Origin: a virus
Taxonomy: Duplodnaviria > Caudoviricetes
Strand: one strand, 5' to 3'
IMG/VR virus record: IMGVR_UViG_3300022555_000004
Length of the DNA stretch: 64,000 nucleotides
Of the stretch, positions 6,921 to 50,979 are shown piece after piece. The position numbers and the translations under genes were made by a program. Position 1 is the stretch's first letter, and each line of letters opens with the position of its first letter. The notes below the pieces were generated by a model that was not told where the DNA came from, did not search any database, and saw nothing but the letters and a program-made list of their open reading frames with translations.

Positions 6921-7250
6921 ATTATATCCTATCCCAATTATCAATTGTGATTTTATTTCTTTTAGTGCGAATACGGTCTTTCAACGATTTATGGGTAACT
7001 CCCGCCGGCGCCATTGGTATCCTACGTTTAGCGGTGTTAGCATAAACCAAGACTTCTTTATTCCCAATCATTTCTTTCCTCAATAATTTCTTTTTCATCG
7101 CTCTTCATCTTTCCAAGATCTTTTATTTTCCATCTTTTAGCCCACCCCATCTTATGAGGTTTACACATGGCACAAGACCTCTTTTTTACTTTATATACTT
7201 TTCTCATTTTTATCCCTTATTATAACACAATTTTCATATATTGTCAATGT

Positions 7251-7532
7251 TTATAATTCAAACAATTCATCGTCTAGTGTAAAGCAATCAACTTCATACG
7301 GTATAACATGTGATTTATTGACCAACCATTTTTTTAGATTATCTGGATATAAGATACTATAATTAACTTCGGTTATCCTATAATCAATAATAAAATATGG
7401 AACATCAAATTTATTATTATATGCTTGTTCTCCACGGTCAAAACTAATACTAACCCAATGCCCTTTATGATAGTCAGGGTCATTTTTAAGTAGTTTTAAT
7501 ATTTCTGGTTTAAATTTTACTTTCTTATTCAT
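7251..7532 (-). CDS. LDDELFEL-tag family protein, subtype A
   Basis: KVKFKPE N-terminus; ends FTLDDELFEL*; paralog of 7764-8060. Confidence 0.8.
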   Translation of the reverse strand: MNKKVKFKPEILKLLKNDPDYHKGHWVSISFDRGEQAYNNKFDVPYFIIDYRITEVNYSILYPDNLKKWLVNKSHVIPYEVDCFTLDDELFEL

Positions 7533-7542
7533 TTATTCATCC

Positions 7543-7767
7543 TTATAATTCAAACAATCCATCATCTAATGTAATTTCATATTCCTGTATCTCAATCAAA
7601 TCGTTTACAAGTGAATATGAACACAAACTGATTTGTCCATTTTCATCTATCAGACGGCGGCGAGTATTGTTAGTTGGGTCAATATAAACATATGGTAGTG
7701 TACTAAAATGTACGCAATCTGGACATCCACAATATATTTCCTTTTTTAGTTTATATTTTTTCCTCAT
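7543..7767 (-). CDS. LDDELFEL-tag family protein, subtype B (CxCPxC)
   Basis: Ends EITLDDGLFEL*; paralog of 8064-8303. Confidence 0.8.
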   Translation of the reverse strand: MRKKYKLKKEIYCGCPDCVHFSTLPYVYIDPTNNTRRRLIDENGQISLCSYSLVNDLIEIQEYEITLDDGLFEL

Positions 7768-8060
7768 AATTCAAACAATTCATCGTCTAATGTAATTTCA
7801 TATTCGTTGTATGGCATAACATGTGCTTTGCTTATGGCATATGTTGATAATCCTCTTGGTTCTACAATTCTATAACTTGACTCTGAACTAAATCCGGTTA
7901 CTATAAAAAATGGAACATCAAATCTATGGTCATATGATTGATATCCATACGATATGTTTGAATCTTTTATCCTAACAAACGACCCACTTTTAAAGTCTGG
8001 ATTGCTTCTAAGTTGTTTCAATACTTCTGGTTTAAATTTTACTTTTAACGTCATACACAT
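7764..8060 (-). CDS. LDDELFEL-tag family protein, subtype A
   Basis: Ends EITLDDELFEL*. Confidence 0.8.
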   Translation of the reverse strand: MCMTLKVKFKPEVLKQLRSNPDFKSGSFVRIKDSNISYGYQSYDHRFDVPFFIVTGFSSESSYRIVEPRGLSTYAISKAHVMPYNEYEITLDDELFEL

Positions 8061-8063
8061 TCC

Positions 8064-8303
8064 TTATAATTCAAACAATTTATCATCTAATGATATCACA
8101 AAAGGAAAAACCTCTACGAATGGATTGTCATCTGGCTTATATGTTACCATACTTAGACGGCCTTTTGTGTCACTTATTTTTACCTGACCATAGCCAAATT
8201 TATCATCTTTTATTATTATAAAATATGTCAATGATTTGAAATATTGACACTCTGGACAATTACAATCCATACAATCTTCTTTAAATTTATAATATCGTTC
8301 CAT
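8064..8303 (-). CDS. LDDELFEL-tag family protein, subtype B (CxCPxC)
   Basis: Ends ISLDDKLFEL*. Confidence 0.8.
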   Translation of the reverse strand: MERYYKFKEDCMDCNCPECQYFKSLTYFIIIKDDKFGYGQVKISDTKGRLSMVTYKPDDNPFVEVFPFVISLDDKLFEL

Positions 8304-9019
8304 TATTTTATCATTTCCATCAATGTATCAAAGTCAATAATGGTTACGCGCGACCTTTTCATTGATTCACTTATTTTTCTTTTATGTTCATCTGACATAG
8401 GGCCTCTTTTCATTCCTGTTCTACTTTTACTCATTTTTTCCTTTGTTTCTTTGGTCATTGGATGTTTATTTTTTGCTGATATTGACATTTTTTCTCTGGT
8501 TGTCAACGAAAATGTTTTATTGATAGCCGATTTACTCATTTTCTTTTTTGTTTCATCTGATTTTTTTCTGCCTAAAAGTGATATACTTATTTTTTTTCTT
8601 ACGTCCGATGGTATAGTTTTTCCAAACATGTAACTCAATTCACCAGTATATTTTCCTATCATTGATAATGACCGTTTTTCAATAATTTCTTTTGAAAATT
8701 TATATCCTTTAGGTATGCCATCTCCACCCCATGTAAGATTATACCCACCTTCTGTCCAATGAGAATGGTTTACAATAATTTTCATGGTTTCCATGACACC
8801 TAAAACTAAGGCATCATCACATTCATATAATATTTCCCATTTGAAATTACCAAGACCATACTTTTTAATAGCACGATGAAAATATGTATTGCTTTTACTT
8901 TCAACACTATCTTTATGCCCTTGTCTTCTTTTATGTAATGATTGTGTTGTTTTGCCAACATAACATTTACCGTTGATTAAATTTGTTGATTTATAAATAA
9001 TACACAATTGTTCTGACAT
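8303..9019 (-). mobile_element. GIY-YIG homing endonuclease with NUMOD3 repeats
   Basis: CIIY...CYVGKT, GYNLTWGGDG, SDETKKKMS repeats; start MSEQL with RBS. Confidence 0.9.
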
Positions 9020-9033
9020 AAGATATACCTCAC

Positions 9034-9113
9034 TATAAATAAGATGTGGAAGGGACAGCAGCAAACCTCACGCTGTTTTCGGTGTGTTGACGCACCCGAA
9101 TTACCTTCTACAT
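9034..9113 (+). ncRNA. Three-way-junction element B with TATAAATA late promoter (9034-9041), antisense to the adjacent GIY-YIG gene
   Basis: P1 AUGUGGAAGG/CCUUCUACAU, P2 GACAGC/GCUGUU, P3 UUCGG/CCGAA; covaries with element A. Confidence 0.65.
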
Positions 9114-9124
9114 GTATTTAGAGA

Positions 9125-10900
9125 TTACCTCAACATTTCTATAAGATCTTGAAAACTTATTATAGTAATATTCATGGTTTGCGCCTTTTTGTTTTTGATA
9201 CTGCCGCTATCGGAATCATCCGTCACCAAATAATCGGTGGATTTAGAAATACCTTTTACATATCCACCCTTGCTTGTTATCAATTGTGTAACTGCATCAC
9301 GTTTCATGGGCATTTTGCCAGTCAATGTGAATGTCAGTCCACTTATACTCGTTTTCTCTTTCATAATAAATTTCAATCCTTTCTCTTTCATAAAATTGTA
9401 AAGTTCGGCAAACTTATTTATATTTTCTACAAGGTTGTTAGAAAGAATATCTCCAACACCTTCTATACCATAGATGCCGTCTACGTTGAATAAATCATCA
9501 AAATTATATTTTTCTAAAATTGGTGTCGCCAATGTTTTACCAATACCACTTATACCAAAGGCTGCCAATAACTTATCAGGTGTAACCGATAGTGTTTTCT
9601 GGATTTCATAATAGACCTGTTCGGCCTTTTTGATACCAAATCCCCCAAGGGCAGACATTTCCAATTCATCCAATTCATACATTTCTTCAATAGAATTGAC
9701 ACCAAGATTTCTGACCGTTGTTTCGGTAATGTATTCAGACCCTAATGTTTTGAAAAAATGGGCAATCTGTCTTACCTTAGAATCATAACAATCCTCATTT
9801 TTACATACAAGGTCAACACCGATATGTTGTACACTACCACCACATGAAGGACAAACCTCCGGTGCGAAAATATCGAGAACTCGCTCGAAGACCTCTGTGA
9901 TGTAGGGTATCACACCACCACTACGGACAATACCAATTACGGCGCCCGTTCCAATTCCATTATCAAAAATGAAATCATAATTAAATCCGGTTGCTTTAGA
10001 GATTGTAACACCATCTAATTCAATCGGTTCAATATAAACCAAAGGTGTAATTTTGCCTGTACGTCCCAAATTCCATTCGACCTTATCAACAACTACTTTG
10101 ACTGCTTCTGTATTAACCTTGTATGCCACCTTATTTTCCGGTAACATAACATCTTCCCGTTCAGAATCATTATTCGTTAGAACAAGGCCATCAACATCAT
10201 AAGGCATGTATTTTGCGTTCATCAAAATCGTATTTAAGGTATCCACAATATCACTATCTTTTGAGTATTTTAATGTAGTGAACGGCGGAACTTGAAGACC
10301 AAGATTGACCATTGTGGACAATCGACTAATTTCGGTTGTAGGGATGCCCGTTTCACATTCCAATATTTCATAAAACATTGGATGTAACATTTCAACATGA
10401 TGAGCAAGTGCACCATTGACGCCGTTTCTACGATTTTTATAACCTAATTTGATATGGTCATCATTAAACAATAACAATTCACCCCTCAAAGAGATTCGAC
10501 TATCAATAACAAATTTGGGCATAATCTTTTTGATTTTATCCGTAATGTCCTGCCCTTCTTGACCATCGCCCCTTGTGGACGCAAATACAACTTCACCATT
10601 TTCAACAGTAACCATGAAGGATACACCATCAAGTTTATGGCTGACAACGATTTCCTTACCTTTTACAAACTTTTCAACTGTATCGGATTTTACCTTATCT
10701 AAGGAACCCAACACAAAGGGTAATTTGACCTTTTCGCCATCAACACTGGCACCGACTGTTTTGAAATATTGGTCATTAGGAAATTCGGACTTGGCCTGTT
10801 CCTTCAATAAATCATATTCAGTGTCAGTCAATGTCGTGACATCTTCATTGTAATATTCCTTATCATATTGTTTTAATTGTTCTAATATATTTTTTGTCAT
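9125..10900 (-). CDS. ligA: NAD-dependent DNA ligase
   Basis: KLDG motif I, TRGDG, Cys-containing Zn-finger region, HhH repeats, C-terminal BRCT. Confidence 0.96.
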   Translation of the reverse strand: MTKNILEQLKQYDKEYYNEDVTTLTDTEYDLLKEQAKSEFPNDQYFKTVGASVDGEKVKLPFVLGSLDKVKSDTVEKFVKGKEIVVSHKLDGVSFMVTVENGEVVFASTRGDGQEGQDITDKIKKIMPKFVIDSRISLRGELLLFNDDHIKLGYKNRRNGVNGALAHHVEMLHPMFYEILECETGIPTTEISRLSTMVNLGLQVPPFTTLKYSKDSDIVDTLNTILMNAKYMPYDVDGLVLTNNDSEREDVMLPENKVAYKVNTEAVKVVVDKVEWNLGRTGKITPLVYIEPIELDGVTISKATGFNYDFIFDNGIGTGAVIGIVRSGGVIPYITEVFERVLDIFAPEVCPSCGGSVQHIGVDLVCKNEDCYDSKVRQIAHFFKTLGSEYITETTVRNLGVNSIEEMYELDELEMSALGGFGIKKAEQVYYEIQKTLSVTPDKLLAAFGISGIGKTLATPILEKYNFDDLFNVDGIYGIEGVGDILSNNLVENINKFAELYNFMKEKGLKFIMKEKTSISGLTFTLTGKMPMKRDAVTQLITSKGGYVKGISKSTDYLVTDDSDSGSIKNKKAQTMNITIISFQDLIEMLR

Positions 10901-15586: not shown

Positions 15587-15916
15587 TTAATCGTATTCAT
15601 AATCGTGTCCGTGTCTGCCTTTCCAGTTTTGTATCAACAAGTCTTTTGCTTTATCATTCAGATTATCCAAAGCACCAAAATCCGCATCCTCCTCACCAGA
15701 CACGCCTCGAGCATGTTGCCGTTCATGTTGTAAGATAATATCCTTTTCATTTTTAGTCAAAGACGGATCGTTACAGATAACAATAATAGTTTTAGATTTT
15801 GATGTTATAGTCAATGCGTATTGTTCGGTCGAATCAAAATCATCATTCACAGATAACAATGTTTTCTTGAACGTGTCGAAATCTGATTTAGATAAGTATC
15901 GTATTATAGTTTTCAT
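15587..15916 (-). CDS. Hypothetical protein with HExxH motif
   Basis: ILQHERQHA. Confidence 0.65.
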   Translation of the reverse strand: MKTIIRYLSKSDFDTFKKTLLSVNDDFDSTEQYALTITSKSKTIIVICNDPSLTKNEKDIILQHERQHARGVSGEEDADFGALDNLNDKAKDLLIQNWKGRHGHDYEYD

Positions 15917-16383
15917 TCTTTCCTCAAATAATCTATCAATTTACACATAGCATCGTAAACAGGTGTAAATACATCCAATTTGCTTTGTGCATTACCAGCA
16001 ATATTTATGATTTTGAAATCGTTTTCAATAATCCAATCGCCTACTTCTTTTATCATTGTGTATGTAATTGGATAACCAAGGTCTATATCTGTATGAGGTT
16101 TATCATATTCTTTGATGGCATTGAATGTGCATTTTTCGCCGGCGGAATTGAAGTTGAAGGCAAATCGTAATGTGCAATCAGAATTTTGAACATTCATATA
16201 TGTTCGTTTTTTGTAACCACCTTGAACTTCAACAAGGCCAAATTTATCACGGAGGGAAAAATCACTTCCATCTAATGTCATAAACTTAGAAGGAGCAAAC
16301 CCACCTGTTTCTATGCCTTTATAAAATGCTGCATAGAGTCCGGCTTGATCTGCCCCTGTTTGTCCGCCCGATATAATTTTCAT
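15913..16383 (-). CDS. SLOG-family (putative molybdenum-carrier-like) protein
   Basis: KIISGGQTGAD.AGL, RTYMNVQNSD.TL, INIAGN motifs. Confidence 0.85.
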   Translation of the reverse strand: MKIISGGQTGADQAGLYAAFYKGIETGGFAPSKFMTLDGSDFSLRDKFGLVEVQGGYKKRTYMNVQNSDCTLRFAFNFNSAGEKCTFNAIKEYDKPHTDIDLGYPITYTMIKEVGDWIIENDFKIINIAGNAQSKLDVFTPVYDAMCKLIDYLRKE

Positions 16384-16574
16384 AATTCAAACAATTCATC
16401 AGGTATTGTAATTTCATATACTGGAACACACATCGTATTACGGTTGGCCGCGCCACATGCTCCTAAATTACAATAGGTTGATAGGTCATGTTTAAATTGA
16501 TGTTCACAATCAGGTGTTGTCTTAAATTCATATCCACATATTTTATCTCTTATCAATTCACAAATTACATGCAT
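16380..16574 (-). CDS. Cys-rich LDDELFEL-tag family protein
   Basis: Ends YEITIPDELFEL*; DNA matches the 3' ends of the 7251-8303 genes. Confidence 0.75.
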   Translation of the reverse strand: MHVICELIRDKICGYEFKTTPDCEHQFKHDLSTYCNLGACGAANRNTMCVPVYEITIPDELFEL

Positions 16575-20176: not shown

Positions 20177-20252
20177 TGGCACCCCTAGTAGGACTCGAAC
20201 CTACATATGAACTGTTTAGAAGACAGTTGCCTATCCATTAGGCTATAGGGGC
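20177..20252 (-). tRNA. tRNA-Arg (TCT)
   Basis: ACUGU-CU-UCU-AA-ACAGU; canonical; CCA. Confidence 0.93.
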
Positions 20253-20258
20253 ATATTT

Positions 20259-20492
20259 TTAAAATATAGAATCATCCAATTCAATTATGAAAACAGGCGA
20301 CACTGTAAACCCATATGCTCGTAACTGACTGACTTGTAACAATTCTAAATCTATTTTGACACTTTTATCTGATCGCATATTATCACATATATCTTTTGTT
20401 TCTCTAAGACCCCATCCTGTAACGGCCCGCATGTCTTTTATGGATTGAATAAAGATATGGTCAATATCATTTTTTGATATATTATATAACAT
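20259..20492 (-). CDS. Ribosomal bL12 C-terminal-domain-like protein
   Basis: IQSIKDMRAVTGWGLRETKDICD resembles IK.VR..TGLGLKEAKD; ends IIELDDSIF*. Confidence 0.6.
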   Translation of the reverse strand: MLYNISKNDIDHIFIQSIKDMRAVTGWGLRETKDICDNMRSDKSVKIDLELLQVSQLRAYGFTVSPVFIIELDDSIF

Positions 20493-46623: not shown

Positions 46624-47373
46624 ATGTTAATCAACACAAGTGAATTAAAAACGTTTTTAAAAAAGGCCACGATCAACTACTGTATTGATAGTGTTCAGAT
46701 AAATTTGACAAAAGCCCTCGTAACATCAAAGATGATTTCGGCGGCCTCTGATGTAATTTCATTACTCAAATTACCTAATGAAATACTACCTAGCATGAAG
46801 GCCACGGATACATTGGTTCTGAATTTTGCTGAACCAAATACAAACATCGTTCCATACCTCAATCTTATTGATGATGATGTAGAAACAACGATAGCTATTA
46901 AGGATGAAAAAATTACATTGATTCAGGGGAAACAAAAATCCAATATGTTTTTTTGCTCGCCCCAAATGGTAAATGTTTTTGAGGCGGATAGTCCACGAGC
47001 TGATATTGATTACTTCAAAGTGATGGATATTGATGATGATTTTATTGAATCCTTCAATAAAATTAAAAAGATTGGGTCAAAATTTAATAAGATTTATTTT
47101 GGTGTTTTGGATAATGTGTTATATATAGAAGCATCGGATAAACAAAATAGATTTTCAAATGGATTGAGAATTGATTTATGTGACGTGACATATGATAATA
47201 TGTCCATGTGTTTTGATTTCAAAAATGTGGTCAATGTAATGTCGGTATTAGACATGGTTGATTTTACATGTCATTTTGCCTATGTTCCAGAACAAGAATT
47301 AGGTATGATATATATCGGAAATGAAAATGAAAGTGAAAAATACTATTTAATGAGTAAAAACGATGGTGTATAA
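46624..47373 (+). CDS. gp45: Sliding clamp (T4 gp45-like)
   Basis: ~250 aa, acidic, clamp-like repeated pattern; adjacent to clamp loader. Confidence 0.75.
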   Translation: MLINTSELKTFLKKATINYCIDSVQINLTKALVTSKMISAASDVISLLKLPNEILPSMKATDTLVLNFAEPNTNIVPYLNLIDDDVETTIAIKDEKITLIQGKQKSNMFFCSPQMVNVFEADSPRADIDYFKVMDIDDDFIESFNKIKKIGSKFNKIYFGVLDNVLYIEASDKQNRFSNGLRIDLCDVTYDNMSMCFDFKNVVNVMSVLDMVDFTCHFAYVPEQELGMIYIGNENESEKYYLMSKNDGV

Positions 47374-48139: not shown

Positions 48140-48418
48140 ATGGAAAGAGAAGTTTGGGGTGGTGAAAATTTTCAGTATAATGAAGGCGCAATCCAAACTG
48201 GCATTATGGTAAACGGAACGACAATTCCGGTTGAACCAGGCGCTAGTTTTAGGGATACAATCAAAAACGTGTCGCTTGATGCGGGTTTTGGTAAGTATCG
48301 TGTGTTTCTGAACGGTGCTGAAATTCGTCCGTCTGAAGCGCCCGCTCTGTTCAACGCAGGCGATAAAGCCGAAGTGCGCGCATATGACGATGCCGGAGCT
48401 ATAATCCTTTGCCAGTAA
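48140..48418 (+). CDS. Ubiquitin-like beta-grasp protein, ends DAG-AIILCQ
   Basis: IMVNG.....PG.S...FLNG.EI....A...GD.AEVR.YD.AG pattern; upstream of E2/E1/JAB genes. Confidence 0.7.
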   Translation: MEREVWGGENFQYNEGAIQTGIMVNGTTIPVEPGASFRDTIKNVSLDAGFGKYRVFLNGAEIRPSEAPALFNAGDKAEVRAYDDAGAIILCQ

Positions 48419-48459
48419 GGATTTGGACGTTTAATTCATGGGTTTCGCGAAATCAGTGA

Positions 48460-48494
48460 AAAAAGGTTGTATATATTATGTATACAACCTTTTT
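48460..48494. repeat. Perfect 14-bp inverted repeat between the Ubl and E2-like genes
   Basis: AAAAAGGTTGTATA-7nt-TATACAACCTTTTT. Confidence 0.8.
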
Positions 48495-48608
48495 ACGTTG
48501 TATCCAATGGTATGCTGAACGATACGATATTGGTGGATAAAAATAAATGTTGACAAATGGAACAAAACGTGGTATTATAAGAGAAAAAAATGAAGAGAGG
48601 ATATAACA

Positions 48609-49475
48609 ATGGCTGATACCAGCAACATTAAAGATAAGCTTAAAGCATATCATGACAGTATGATTCAAACACTTGAAACGTTGAAAATTGACGATCTCAA
48701 AACAACGACTGTTACGATACGTCTAGGCAATAAAATATATGATTTGGTTGCTTCAAAAGAATCCGTGATTGTTGATGAAGATCAGATCAGGAAAGAATTT
48801 GAAGATAAACTAACAGAAAAACGTTTGAATATCAGGGATACAATTAAGGCTAAAATGTCCGAAGTTTCGGCATTAGTGTCGTCTATTCAAAGTGAATATG
48901 AACGAAAAGAAAAAATCCTAAAGGATACAATGTCGAAAGCGGCACCTATGCCAGAAGTAACATGGTCACATGCACAACGTGGGTTGTCCATTGTTAAGGG
49001 TGGTTCGCGTGGTGAAATTATTTGGATTGTCAAAAGAACGTATAATCCTAAATTCATGGATCATAAGAGTATTGAACCGTTATATGTCAAGAAATTAATG
49101 ACCCATATTTATATCAGAATTACAACTAGGGATAACGCTGTTATGGGTGTGTCTTCACACTATATGAATAATATGGATTATTTTGACCACTATCATCAAG
49201 CCCGTCCTGATTGTTGGGGAAATTGGAAATACCCTAAATCGTGGAATACCGCGGATGATATTATCAAAATCGCTGATGATGCCACATCTGTAATGGAAAA
49301 CATTAACACAATGTCCGTTGCACACAGGACGCCATCGTTGATGCCACGGTTGGAAACTTTACGCCGTCATTTAGCCAAAGATCCGATCGCTCCACCTGTT
49401 GTTAAGGTTGGTGTGTCTGATATGAGAGAAGGACTTGGTATGAACGCTCCAAATAGCGATATTTGGGGAAACTAA
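48609..49475 (+). CDS. Coiled-coil plus putative prokaryotic E2-like domain
   Basis: FDHYHQARPDCWGN resembles the HP(N/H)...C(W/L)G E2 active-site region; C202 is the only Cys; operon context. Confidence 0.55.
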   Translation: MADTSNIKDKLKAYHDSMIQTLETLKIDDLKTTTVTIRLGNKIYDLVASKESVIVDEDQIRKEFEDKLTEKRLNIRDTIKAKMSEVSALVSSIQSEYERKEKILKDTMSKAAPMPEVTWSHAQRGLSIVKGGSRGEIIWIVKRTYNPKFMDHKSIEPLYVKKLMTHIYIRITTRDNAVMGVSSHYMNNMDYFDHYHQARPDCWGNWKYPKSWNTADDIIKIADDATSVMENINTMSVAHRTPSLMPRLETLRRHLAKDPIAPPVVKVGVSDMREGLGMNAPNSDIWGN

Positions 49476-49577
49476 CAGGATGAACCGGAGGAAATTTTCC
49501 TCCGGTTCATTATTATGTTGACATAACAGGGGTTTTGTGTTATAATCAATTTATAATAAAGAAAGGAAATAAAAACT

Positions 49578-50159
49578 ATGAGCCGTTTATATGAACGACA
49601 AGAAAGTTTAAAATTGAATAAGGATATTAGCATCACCGTGATTGGTTGTGGTGGTGTTGGTTATTGGACGGCAAAATTTGCTGCAATGTCTGGAATTGAA
49701 AAGATTTATTTGTTTGATTTCGATGTTATTGAGGAACATAATTTGAATCGGTTGGATTTACCGATAAGTGCAATTGGTCAGAACAAAGCGGCCGTTACGA
49801 AATCGGTTATCAATTTTTTACGTCCTGAAACGACCGTGTTTGCACTGCCTTTCAAATTTAAAGAAGGTCTTTTCAAAATGACAGATTGGATTATTGATTG
49901 CACAGATCGTTCCAATGTTCAAGAGGAAAATCAAGCTATCGCAAAAGCCAATGGTGCAAAATATTTGAAGGTTGGGTATAACGGTGAACATATCACTTTA
50001 TCAAATGTTGTTGCCGAGTGGGGTGAGTCTACCGATGGGTACACGGTTATTCCATCGTGGGTTGTTCCTGCCACCGTTGTGGCCGCACTTGCCGTTGGAA
50101 AAATCATGAAATATTATGATAAAGAGATTTCTACCAATTTAAAAGATTTGTATAATTAA
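49578..50159 (+). CDS. ThiF/E1-family adenylyltransferase (minimal, no CxxC Zn sites)
   Basis: VIGCGGVG, DFDVIEEHNLNR, IGQNKA, IDCTD. Confidence 0.92.
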   Translation: MSRLYERQESLKLNKDISITVIGCGGVGYWTAKFAAMSGIEKIYLFDFDVIEEHNLNRLDLPISAIGQNKAAVTKSVINFLRPETTVFALPFKFKEGLFKMTDWIIDCTDRSNVQEENQAIAKANGAKYLKVGYNGEHITLSNVVAEWGESTDGYTVIPSWVVPATVVAALAVGKIMKYYDKEISTNLKDLYN

Positions 50160-50163
50160 GATT

Positions 50164-50979
50164 ATGGGAAAAAAGAAAAATAGGAGAAAAAAGAAAATGA
50201 ATAAAATATATAGAGCATATAATTTTCAATCAGTTGAAAATCAATTGGATGCACTTGAACCGATTGCGGCCGATGATGGGTGGGGTAACACCGCTGATGA
50301 TTTGAAGGTAGTTTCCACTTGTGGACGTAAACCAGAAGGAGCATTGACAATTTTATTCAGTCGGATTGCCAAAGCAAAGGTTGATATTCTAATGAAGAAA
50401 TATCAAAATCTGGAATGGTTAGCATATCTAATTGGCGATGCTAGTAACCGATTTGTACGAGATATTGTTTTACCTGAGCAAGAAGTAACGTCTGGAGCGG
50501 TTACTGTGACTGGCCCTCAGCCGAGTTCTGATGTAATGGGTGTCATTCATTCCCATCACAGCATGGGAGCGTTCTTTTCGGGGACAGATGATGCTTATAT
50601 CAATCAAAATTATGATATTTCGGTTGTCGTTGCCCACAATGGAATTAAAGCACAGGTACGATGGGTAACGCCTTGTGGATATAAGGTTGTGTCGGATGGT
50701 CAGGTTATTGTTGAAAGCGAAAATCTGTTTGATGAAAACGATTTTATCAGCCAAGTGGATACGGTGGTTACACCTAAAACCTTCAACCTGATTAAATCCG
50801 TATGTGGAACAGGAACAAAAATTCCTGTAAAACATCGAAAAGGTATAAGAGGATTGTCAGGATTGTCAGGATCGTATATGCCAAAAGTTGATATTGATGA
50901 AGAAACATCACCTGAACATCCAGATGAAGGTGAAAATTTGGCGGATATGCTCACACGGGATTTCTGTAACAGGTCATAA
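50164..50979 (+). CDS. JAB/MPN+ metalloprotease (deconjugase-like)
   Basis: EWLAYL...PEQEV and HSHHSMGAFFSGTD JAMM motif. Confidence 0.9.
   Translation: MGKKKNRRKKKMNKIYRAYNFQSVENQLDALEPIAADDGWGNTADDLKVVSTCGRKPEGALTILFSRIAKAKVDILMKKYQNLEWLAYLIGDASNRFVRDIVLPEQEVTSGAVTVTGPQPSSDVMGVIHSHHSMGAFFSGTDDAYINQNYDISVVVAHNGIKAQVRWVTPCGYKVVSDGQVIVESENLFDENDFISQVDTVVTPKTFNLIKSVCGTGTKIPVKHRKGIRGLSGLSGSYMPKVDIDEETSPEHPDEGENLADMLTRDFCNRS

Follow-up and report, generated by a model that had tools for sequence, protein, structure and literature searches.

Shared docking peptides organise replisomes, the clients of sliding clamps and the tails of SSB proteins being examples, and viruses wire many proteins into one hub in this way. 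T7 gp2.5 and E. coli SSB are ssDNA-binding proteins with acidic C-terminal tips. In bacteriophage T4, the peptides that clients present to the gp45 sliding clamp are C-terminal, are found on unlike proteins after a variable linker, and are interchangeable between carriers (PMC2988020). The acidic tip of T4 gp32 (residues 273-301) is distinct from the helix that binds Dda, and its role is to regulate ssDNA binding rather than to recruit Dda (He et al. 2024, PMC11551737).

Here we compare these systems with a C-terminal tail found on small proteins of an uncultured freshwater T4-like phage that has no close relative among deposited phages. The window, that is, the whole stretch of DNA analysed, comprises 64,000 nucleotides. 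Sequences of the same phage come from several lake metagenomes in ENA, one of them being a contig of 229 kb. Five minus-strand ORFs in the window have a common end, (L/I)(D/P)DxLFEL.

Results

Setting and composition of the array

Four of the tail-bearing genes form an array, with genes for an NAD-dependent ligase and a GIY-YIG homing endonuclease upstream of it (Table 1). The initial annotation had described four tandem genes arising as a duplicated B-A pair, and this is borne out: B2, A2, B1 and A1 follow one another in the order of transcription and are tightly packed. The start of A2 is most likely at 8054 rather than at 8060, the other readable start. The two A proteins are 47% identical to each other and the two B proteins 36%, the latter having a CxCxxC knuckle in common. 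The array proteins end in SLDDKLFEL (B2), TLDDELFEL (A2 and A1) and TLDDGLFEL (B1). Adjacent genes are coupled at their junctions through an ATGA overlap or through TAAGGA-N-ATG. Thus, the ATG of B1 overlaps the stop codon of A2 (ATGA), and away from the array the stop codon of C overlaps the start of a cpYpsA/SLOG gene (15913-16383). The array's transcription unit ends at a promoter placed directly after the A1 stop, which consists of TTGACA-17-TATAAT with an upstream TG and faces a gene for a 49-residue CxxC protein (7058-7207).

Table 1 Features of the window discussed in the text
Feature	Coordinates	Strand	Description	Basis
Promoter	7219..7247	(-)	sigma-70-type, 12/12 consensus, extended -10
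A1	7251..7532	(-)	93-aa A family, C-terminus ..DCFTLDDELFEL	alignment; recovered by profile search as P0079
B1	7543..7767	(-)	74-aa Cys-rich small protein, C-terminus ..EYEITLDDGLFEL	B-family alignment
A2	7764..8054	(-)	96-aa A family, small barrel body and flexible tail ..EYEITLDDELFEL (predicted)	alignment, AlphaFold2
B2	8064..8303	(-)	79-aa Cys-rich (CxxCxCxxC), end ..VISLDDKLFEL	B-family alignment
A2 tail module	7764..7805	(-)	42 nt with stop: GAA TAT GAA ATT ACA TTA GAC GAT GAA TTG TTT GAA TTA TGA
Near-identical copies of A2 tail module	7543-7584 (B1), 16380-16421 (C)
Shorter copies of A2 tail module	7251-7274 (A1), 8064-8087 (B2)
GIY-YIG endonuclease	8303-9064	(-)	end ..VTIIDFDTLMEMIK
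Ligase	9125-10900	(-)	just upstream of endonuclease, end ..ITIISFQDLIEMLR
C	16380..16574	(-)	64-aa Cys-rich, unrelated body, C-terminus ..VYEITIPDELFEL
L12-like ORF	20259..20492	(-)	77 aa, weak L7/L12-CTD-like match, end ..IIELDDSIF
Sliding clamp	46624..47373	(+)	PCNA-like two-domain fold	AlphaFold2 and Foldseek
Ubiquitin-like cassette	48140-50979		adjoins the clamp

A six-frame scan of the window found the full tail on one further ORF beyond these four. This is the Cys-rich gene C, for which the initial annotation had correctly given the end TIPDELFEL. A regular expression for the tail peptide matched 5 of the 396 ORFs of the window, against none of the ~2,560 ORFs (about 525 kb) of three large relatives of this phage (G003, G004 and G005). 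At the DNA level, the pattern GAYGANNNATTGTTTGAATTATRA with up to 3 mismatches matched exactly the five tail sites, where 0.11 matches are expected by chance. A2, B1 and C have ~39-42 nt in common with 3-5 differences (5 of 42 nt between C and A2), encoding (E)YEIT(L/I)(D/P)DxLFEL. In A1 and B2, DNA conservation is limited to the last ~24 nt. The 35-40 bp of conserved DNA that had been ascribed to all carriers is therefore a property of A2, B1 and C, and not of A1 and B2.

The L12-like ORF is a marginal member, and its inclusion is uncertain. It had been listed among the tail carriers as a bL12-like gene, and it does end in the look-alike ELDDSIF. The motif is cut short there, and the match to the Pfam L7/L12 CTD (PF00542) extends over 32 residues only and scores 19.4 bits, below the gathering cut-off of 25.9. 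Truncated variants (..IDNEEIF, ..LDDKLFE) are also present within the A family described below. Neither this ORF nor C has a relative in IMG/VR. After the stop codon of the L12-like ORF, the minus-strand sequence at 20229-20258 (GCCCCTATAGCCTAATGGATAGG..) resembles the 5' end of a tRNA gene.

Two further observations concern the surroundings of the array. The ligase of a related phage without the endonuclease (L070, 7941-9728) ends in ..KIIDFETLMEMIEG, which is closer to the end of the window endonuclease than to that of the window ligase. From these sequences, it seems that ligA was invaded at its 3' end by the endonuclease cassette, which supplied a recoded spare end. Some 4.3-4.6 kb before the start of the window, another contig of the same phage (L050:4670-4981) encodes a 103-residue protein with the C-terminus ..YEEEYEEEDAPF. 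This acidic Pro-Phe tail resembles the C-terminal tip of bacterial SSB and may, by analogy, be a second, different docking-type tail of the same early region.

The A family keeps its C-terminus

A1, A2 and one homologue were used together in an exhaustive profile search, which recovered 31 representative clusters of A-family proteins, all of them metagenomic. The family is previously undescribed. It was absent by tblastn from 50,697 deposited phage genomes, A, B and C had no match in Pfam or PHROGs, and word-indexed searches retrieved a single relative of A and none of B. A literature search confined to gp32 and clamp peptides found no paper describing the A family or the tail motif.

The initial annotation had taken conservation in homologues as the mark of a meaningful tail, and the A family displays it: 36 of 40 sequences end in [LI]-[DE]-D-x-[LVI]-[FW]-[END]-[WLIM], and one of the 40 is truncated before the motif. 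The sequences are 24-47% identical to A2 overall, and the C-terminal motif is among the best-kept parts of their alignment. The exchange of F for W at position -3 and the variation among W, L, I and M at position -1 are conservative, and a short strand-like h-x-I-T precedes the motif. The polypeptide stops at the motif in 24 of the 36 sequences and runs on for 2-3 residues in the other 12. Among tail carriers in general, up to 8 residues may follow the motif (for example, WxE in L070 and NIQEVKQ in G007). This indicates that the tail can do without a free carboxylate, as linear motifs typically can.

The phage represented by L070 has the same synteny as the window, with the ligase followed by the array and then by the same downstream genes. 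The A gene is present in its array in 12 tandem copies (L070:9733-13189), and 11 of the encoded paralogs share the end ..h[DE][DE]xhFEW(xE). These paralogs are 67% identical in the tail and 30% identical in the body. The hydrophobic positions of their tails are written with seven codons (CTT, CTA, CTG, TTA, GTG, GTA and ATA), and tails found elsewhere by pattern search use other Leu codons too. Such varied codons at hydrophobic positions imply a constraint on the peptide and not on the DNA. In L070, the end of a protein and the ribosome site of its neighbour are written in the same bases.

The A family owns the tail and a few other genes are borrowers; what the initial annotation took for a tagged family is largely a single genuine protein family.

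Predicted structure of A and relation to B

We modeled A2 with AlphaFold2 from a 40-row alignment. The body is predicted with confidence (pLDDT ~96) as a small barrel. Over the last 14 residues pLDDT falls from 74 to 59 and the model contains a helix of four residues only; the tail is thus predicted to be flexible and not to pack on the body. Searches with the body gave no match in the PDB at E<=0.001, the best being a weak SH3/Tudor similarity. Among the AFDB clusters, the best matches were SH3 or integrase-SH3-like (E 0.2-0.4, probability up to 0.91, TM<0.5). Taken together, the structural similarities of the body are weak and of the SH3/chromo type.

The A and B profiles align with E=1e-7 in hhalign when the tails are included. 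After the tails had been trimmed, the comparison gave P=0.015 only, with no detectable homology. This leaves true homology of A and B unproven and agrees with the earlier view that the two bodies are unrelated.

Tails on other bodies

A contig from another related phage (L069) encodes a B-family protein within an A array. This protein carries the local pre-tail QFNIT and the Trp flavour of its neighbours, ending in ..LSEDLWEL where the A tail reads ..IEDDVWEL. The two tails differ at 9 of 42 nt and still keep the consensus, which indicates that the borrowed copy has been maintained. The tails of L069 are not uniform (VWEL, IFEL, VFNL and LWEL), and this variety weakens the case for strict co-evolution of the tail with one receptor.

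The tail is also found on proteins outside the A, B and C families. These add at least six body types from five further records, and often no A gene lies in their neighbourhood; at least four related phages have the tail on such non-A bodies. Among the IMG/VR records, G002 encodes a 91-residue protein ending in ..ITIDDDLFEL, and G001 encodes proteins of 73-83 residues ending in ..THLDDKLFEL and ..DIEKLFELEL. G007 has ORFs of 83-182 residues with the ends ..LDDELFELNIQEVKQ, ..IEKELFEI, ..EDELFKV and ..EEDIFKV, and five ORFs of 69-119 residues in G008 end in ..LD[DE]xLF[EK][VI]. Two metagenome contigs (L017 and L033) encode proteins of 108-117 residues ending in ..EHLDDNLFEL. A scan with a strict DNA pattern for the tail gave 2 true matches in IMG/VR and 34 stretches in JGI metagenomes. 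Four of the latter end ORFs of 74-117 residues, one being the G001 contig again and the other three forming one new family.

The near-identical tail DNA on B or C and on local A genes indicates that the tail module moves by recombination. The proposal that the shared DNA promotes shuffling gains from this comparison, as in two genomes the B gene has both its pre-tail and its tail in common with the A genes around it. To judge from these sequences, the module has probably been exchanged repeatedly between neighbours and then maintained.

Sliding clamp and ubiquitin-like cassette of the clade

The protein encoded at 46624-47373 is recognisable as a sliding clamp by fold only. It had no sequence match in Pfam, PHROGs or the PDB, whereas its AlphaFold2 model (pLDDT 95.7, from 50 homologues) had PCNA and beta clamps as top Foldseek hits with a probability of 1.00. 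Metagenomes contributed 72 homologues and IMG/VR 60 loci; this clamp therefore marks a large clade of uncultured T4-like phages.

The adjoining ubiquitin-like cassette is present in 12 of 20 further records of this clade. All five tail-bearing records (the window, G001, G002, G007 and G008) have it, and the large tail-free relatives G004 and G005 do not. A third large relative, G003, contains the cassette yet is tail-free, and the co-occurrence of tail and cassette is not significant and only suggestive.

Discussion

In the reading that we favor, to which we give a probability of roughly 55%, the tail is a short linear motif that docks its carriers on a single common partner. The comparisons above show directly how the tail is conserved and how it is distributed in the clade, that it is predicted to be flexible and that it is transferred as a module; its docking role is one that we infer from the conservation pattern. 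A flexible, near-C-terminal acidic-aromatic peptide would act as a common docking handle. Its main owners are the ~90-residue small-barrel A proteins of a clade of uncultured freshwater T4-like phages. Their genes lie in a hypervariable island that follows the NAD-ligase gene downstream, and reach up to 12 tandem copies there. The A bodies diverge fast while the handle stays constant, and recombination through the tail DNA copies the handle onto unrelated small bodies, namely B and C here and others elsewhere. All carriers would then be read by one partner, which might belong to the phage or be a conserved protein of the host. The initial annotation had inferred a modular system in which variable bodies are recruited to one hub; the modular, selected and flexible tail on unrelated bodies is consistent with the first part of that view, whereas the naming of the hub is not supported, as set out below.

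The chief rival, which we regard as unlikely, has no shared partner at all. The motif would be an intrinsic end of the A family, serving self-association or the family's own activity, for example, and the tails of B, C and other proteins would be hitch-hiking by-products of illegitimate recombination and gene conversion in an island that is prone to recombination and adjoins homing endonucleases. Most carriers are indeed members of the one A family, so conservation of the tail could largely reflect a function intrinsic to that family. The tails of B and C could be recent products of recombination that selection has not yet tested, as the DNA of B1, A2 and C is near-identical over the shared stretch. 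A GIY-YIG endonuclease gene heads the array, and the L069 B gene has acquired the pre-tail of its A neighbours together with the tail. However, this explanation does not account well for the further body types that bear the tail in records often lacking a nearby A gene, nor for the L069 B tail, which fits the consensus (L-S-E-D-L-W-E-L beside I-E-D-D-V-W-E-L) in spite of its nucleotide differences. The predicted freedom of the tail from the A body also speaks against an end that serves the body itself.

Another function considered for such an end was proteolytic processing. The prohead protease of T4, gp21, cleaves at L/I-x-E. We rejected this candidate, since cleavage at such a site would remove 1-3 residues only and variants have N or D in place of E.

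Less probable than an intrinsic A-family end is a role for the tail as this phage's clamp-binding peptide, by which the carriers would ride the clamp in the manner of T4 gp43, gp33 and gp55 on gp45. The initial annotation had put the clamp forward as a candidate hub. The T4 clients end in ..NTLDFLL (gp33), ..SLDFLFG (gp43) and ..SLDFLYEAND (gp55) in the T4 record, and the window tails start with (T/S)LDD where the T4 peptides start with (S/T)LD. The window clamp is real by fold, all of the tail-bearing IMG/VR records checked (G001, G002, G007 and G008) carry its family, and client motifs are known to vary between T4-family phages (PMC2988020). However, the obvious clamp clients of relatives in the clade do not have the tail. 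The polymerases of five such relatives end in ETLNFFF (two of them), KQLGLFFS, ENLGLFFV and ETMSLFFGE, which are PIP/QLxLF-like ends without the acidic LFEL. The KQLGLFFS end belongs to G007, a phage that has LFEL-type tails on other proteins. The gp55 homologues of G003, G004 and G007 have ends unrelated to the tail, and G003, G004 and G005 carry the clamp family without any tails. This indicates that the tail is not the recognisable clamp-client motif of this clade, and the clamp gains no support as the hub although its fold is confirmed. We also observed that two separate ORFs make up the DNA polymerase gene of G003, G004 and G007 (L136-L141), and that an ORF resembling a homing endonuclease lies between them or next to them.

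We think it improbable, and more so than clamp binding, that the tail imitates the extreme C-terminal tip of gp32, so that its carriers would dock on the cleft of the gp32 core or on proteins recruited by gp32. This idea starts from sequence resemblance: T4 gp32 ends in ..DTDLDDLLNDL and the tail in ..EITLDDELFEL, so that without any shift in register the two agree at 5 of the last 8 residues. Within the clade, all gp32 tips form acidic helices whose positions -8, -4 and -1 are hydrophobic (DLLAELENF, DLLKELESM, DIMAKLETI and ALLASLRDL), and gp32 of this phage ends in DLMAELRAMR, with the same pattern shifted by one residue. The tail, too, has hydrophobic residues at -8, -4 and -1, as expected of an acidic amphipathic end. 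The acidic tip has been linked to the ssDNA cleft (He et al. 2024, PMC11551737). However, residue by residue the tail is close to the tip of the distantly related T4 rather than to the tips of its own clade. The latter carry a hydrophobic residue or Ala at -7 and -6 and lack an aromatic one at -3, where the tail is acidic and aromatic, respectively. Moreover, hydrophobic residues at i, i+4 and i+7 are a common pattern in acidic helices. In G005 and G006 (L144 and L145), the gp32 frame contains two in-frame TGA codons.

It is very improbable that the conserved element works as DNA or RNA (in translational coupling, as a ribosome-binding site or as a recombination site) with the peptide being incidental: every tail does abut the next start, with TTATGA overlaps at A2/B1 and at C/15913 and TAAGGA-N-ATG after B2 and B1, and the W-x-E codons of L070 (TGG AGT/GAG GAA TAA) spell the Shine-Dalgarno GGAG of the next paralog, but this accounts for the last 1-3 codons only, the hydrophobic and Asp codons vary freely while the residues are kept, and A1, the last gene of the array, keeps its tail though a promoter and not a coupled gene comes next.

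The docking motif that we favor may be taken one step further, to a reading that we regard as a long shot. The A family and its borrowers would be interchangeable adaptors with variable target-binding bodies and a constant handle into one phage machine, possibly the ubiquitin-like cassette. The bodies would bind different targets, for instance host defence or replication proteins, and the carriers would serve as substrate receptors of a phage ubiquitin-like conjugation cassette. A fast-evolving body, 2-12 tandem copies and a transplantable constant handle make up the architecture expected of a set of adaptors or decoys in an arms race. Finding the receptor would give a function to dozens of hypothetical early genes in widespread freshwater T4-like phages, and would provide a portable tag for recruiting proteins to that receptor.

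Among the known systems, the tail may be compared with the client peptides of gp45. Both are short hydrophobic-acidic C-terminal ends of unlike proteins, although the likeness in sequence is confined to the leading (S/T)LD. As in clamp clients, the peptide stands at the extreme C-terminus on a linker predicted to be flexible (pLDDT 59-74). The two differ in spacing, L-D-D-x-L-F-E-L in the window and L-D-F-L-F in the T4 clients, and in their carriers, which are tiny early proteins here and replication or transcription factors in the case of gp45. The PIP box and beta-clamp motif (QxxhxxFF; QL[SD]LF) has an aromatic pair or L-F at a fixed spacing, whereas the tail has the spacing h-x-x-x-h-[FW] with a single aromatic residue, and a Gln, which leads the known motif, is present in 0 of 36 tails. 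Finally, the acidic tips of gp32 and SSB are borne by OB-fold ssDNA binders, unlike the tail, which is carried by a small barrel in A and by Cys-rich mini-proteins in B and C.
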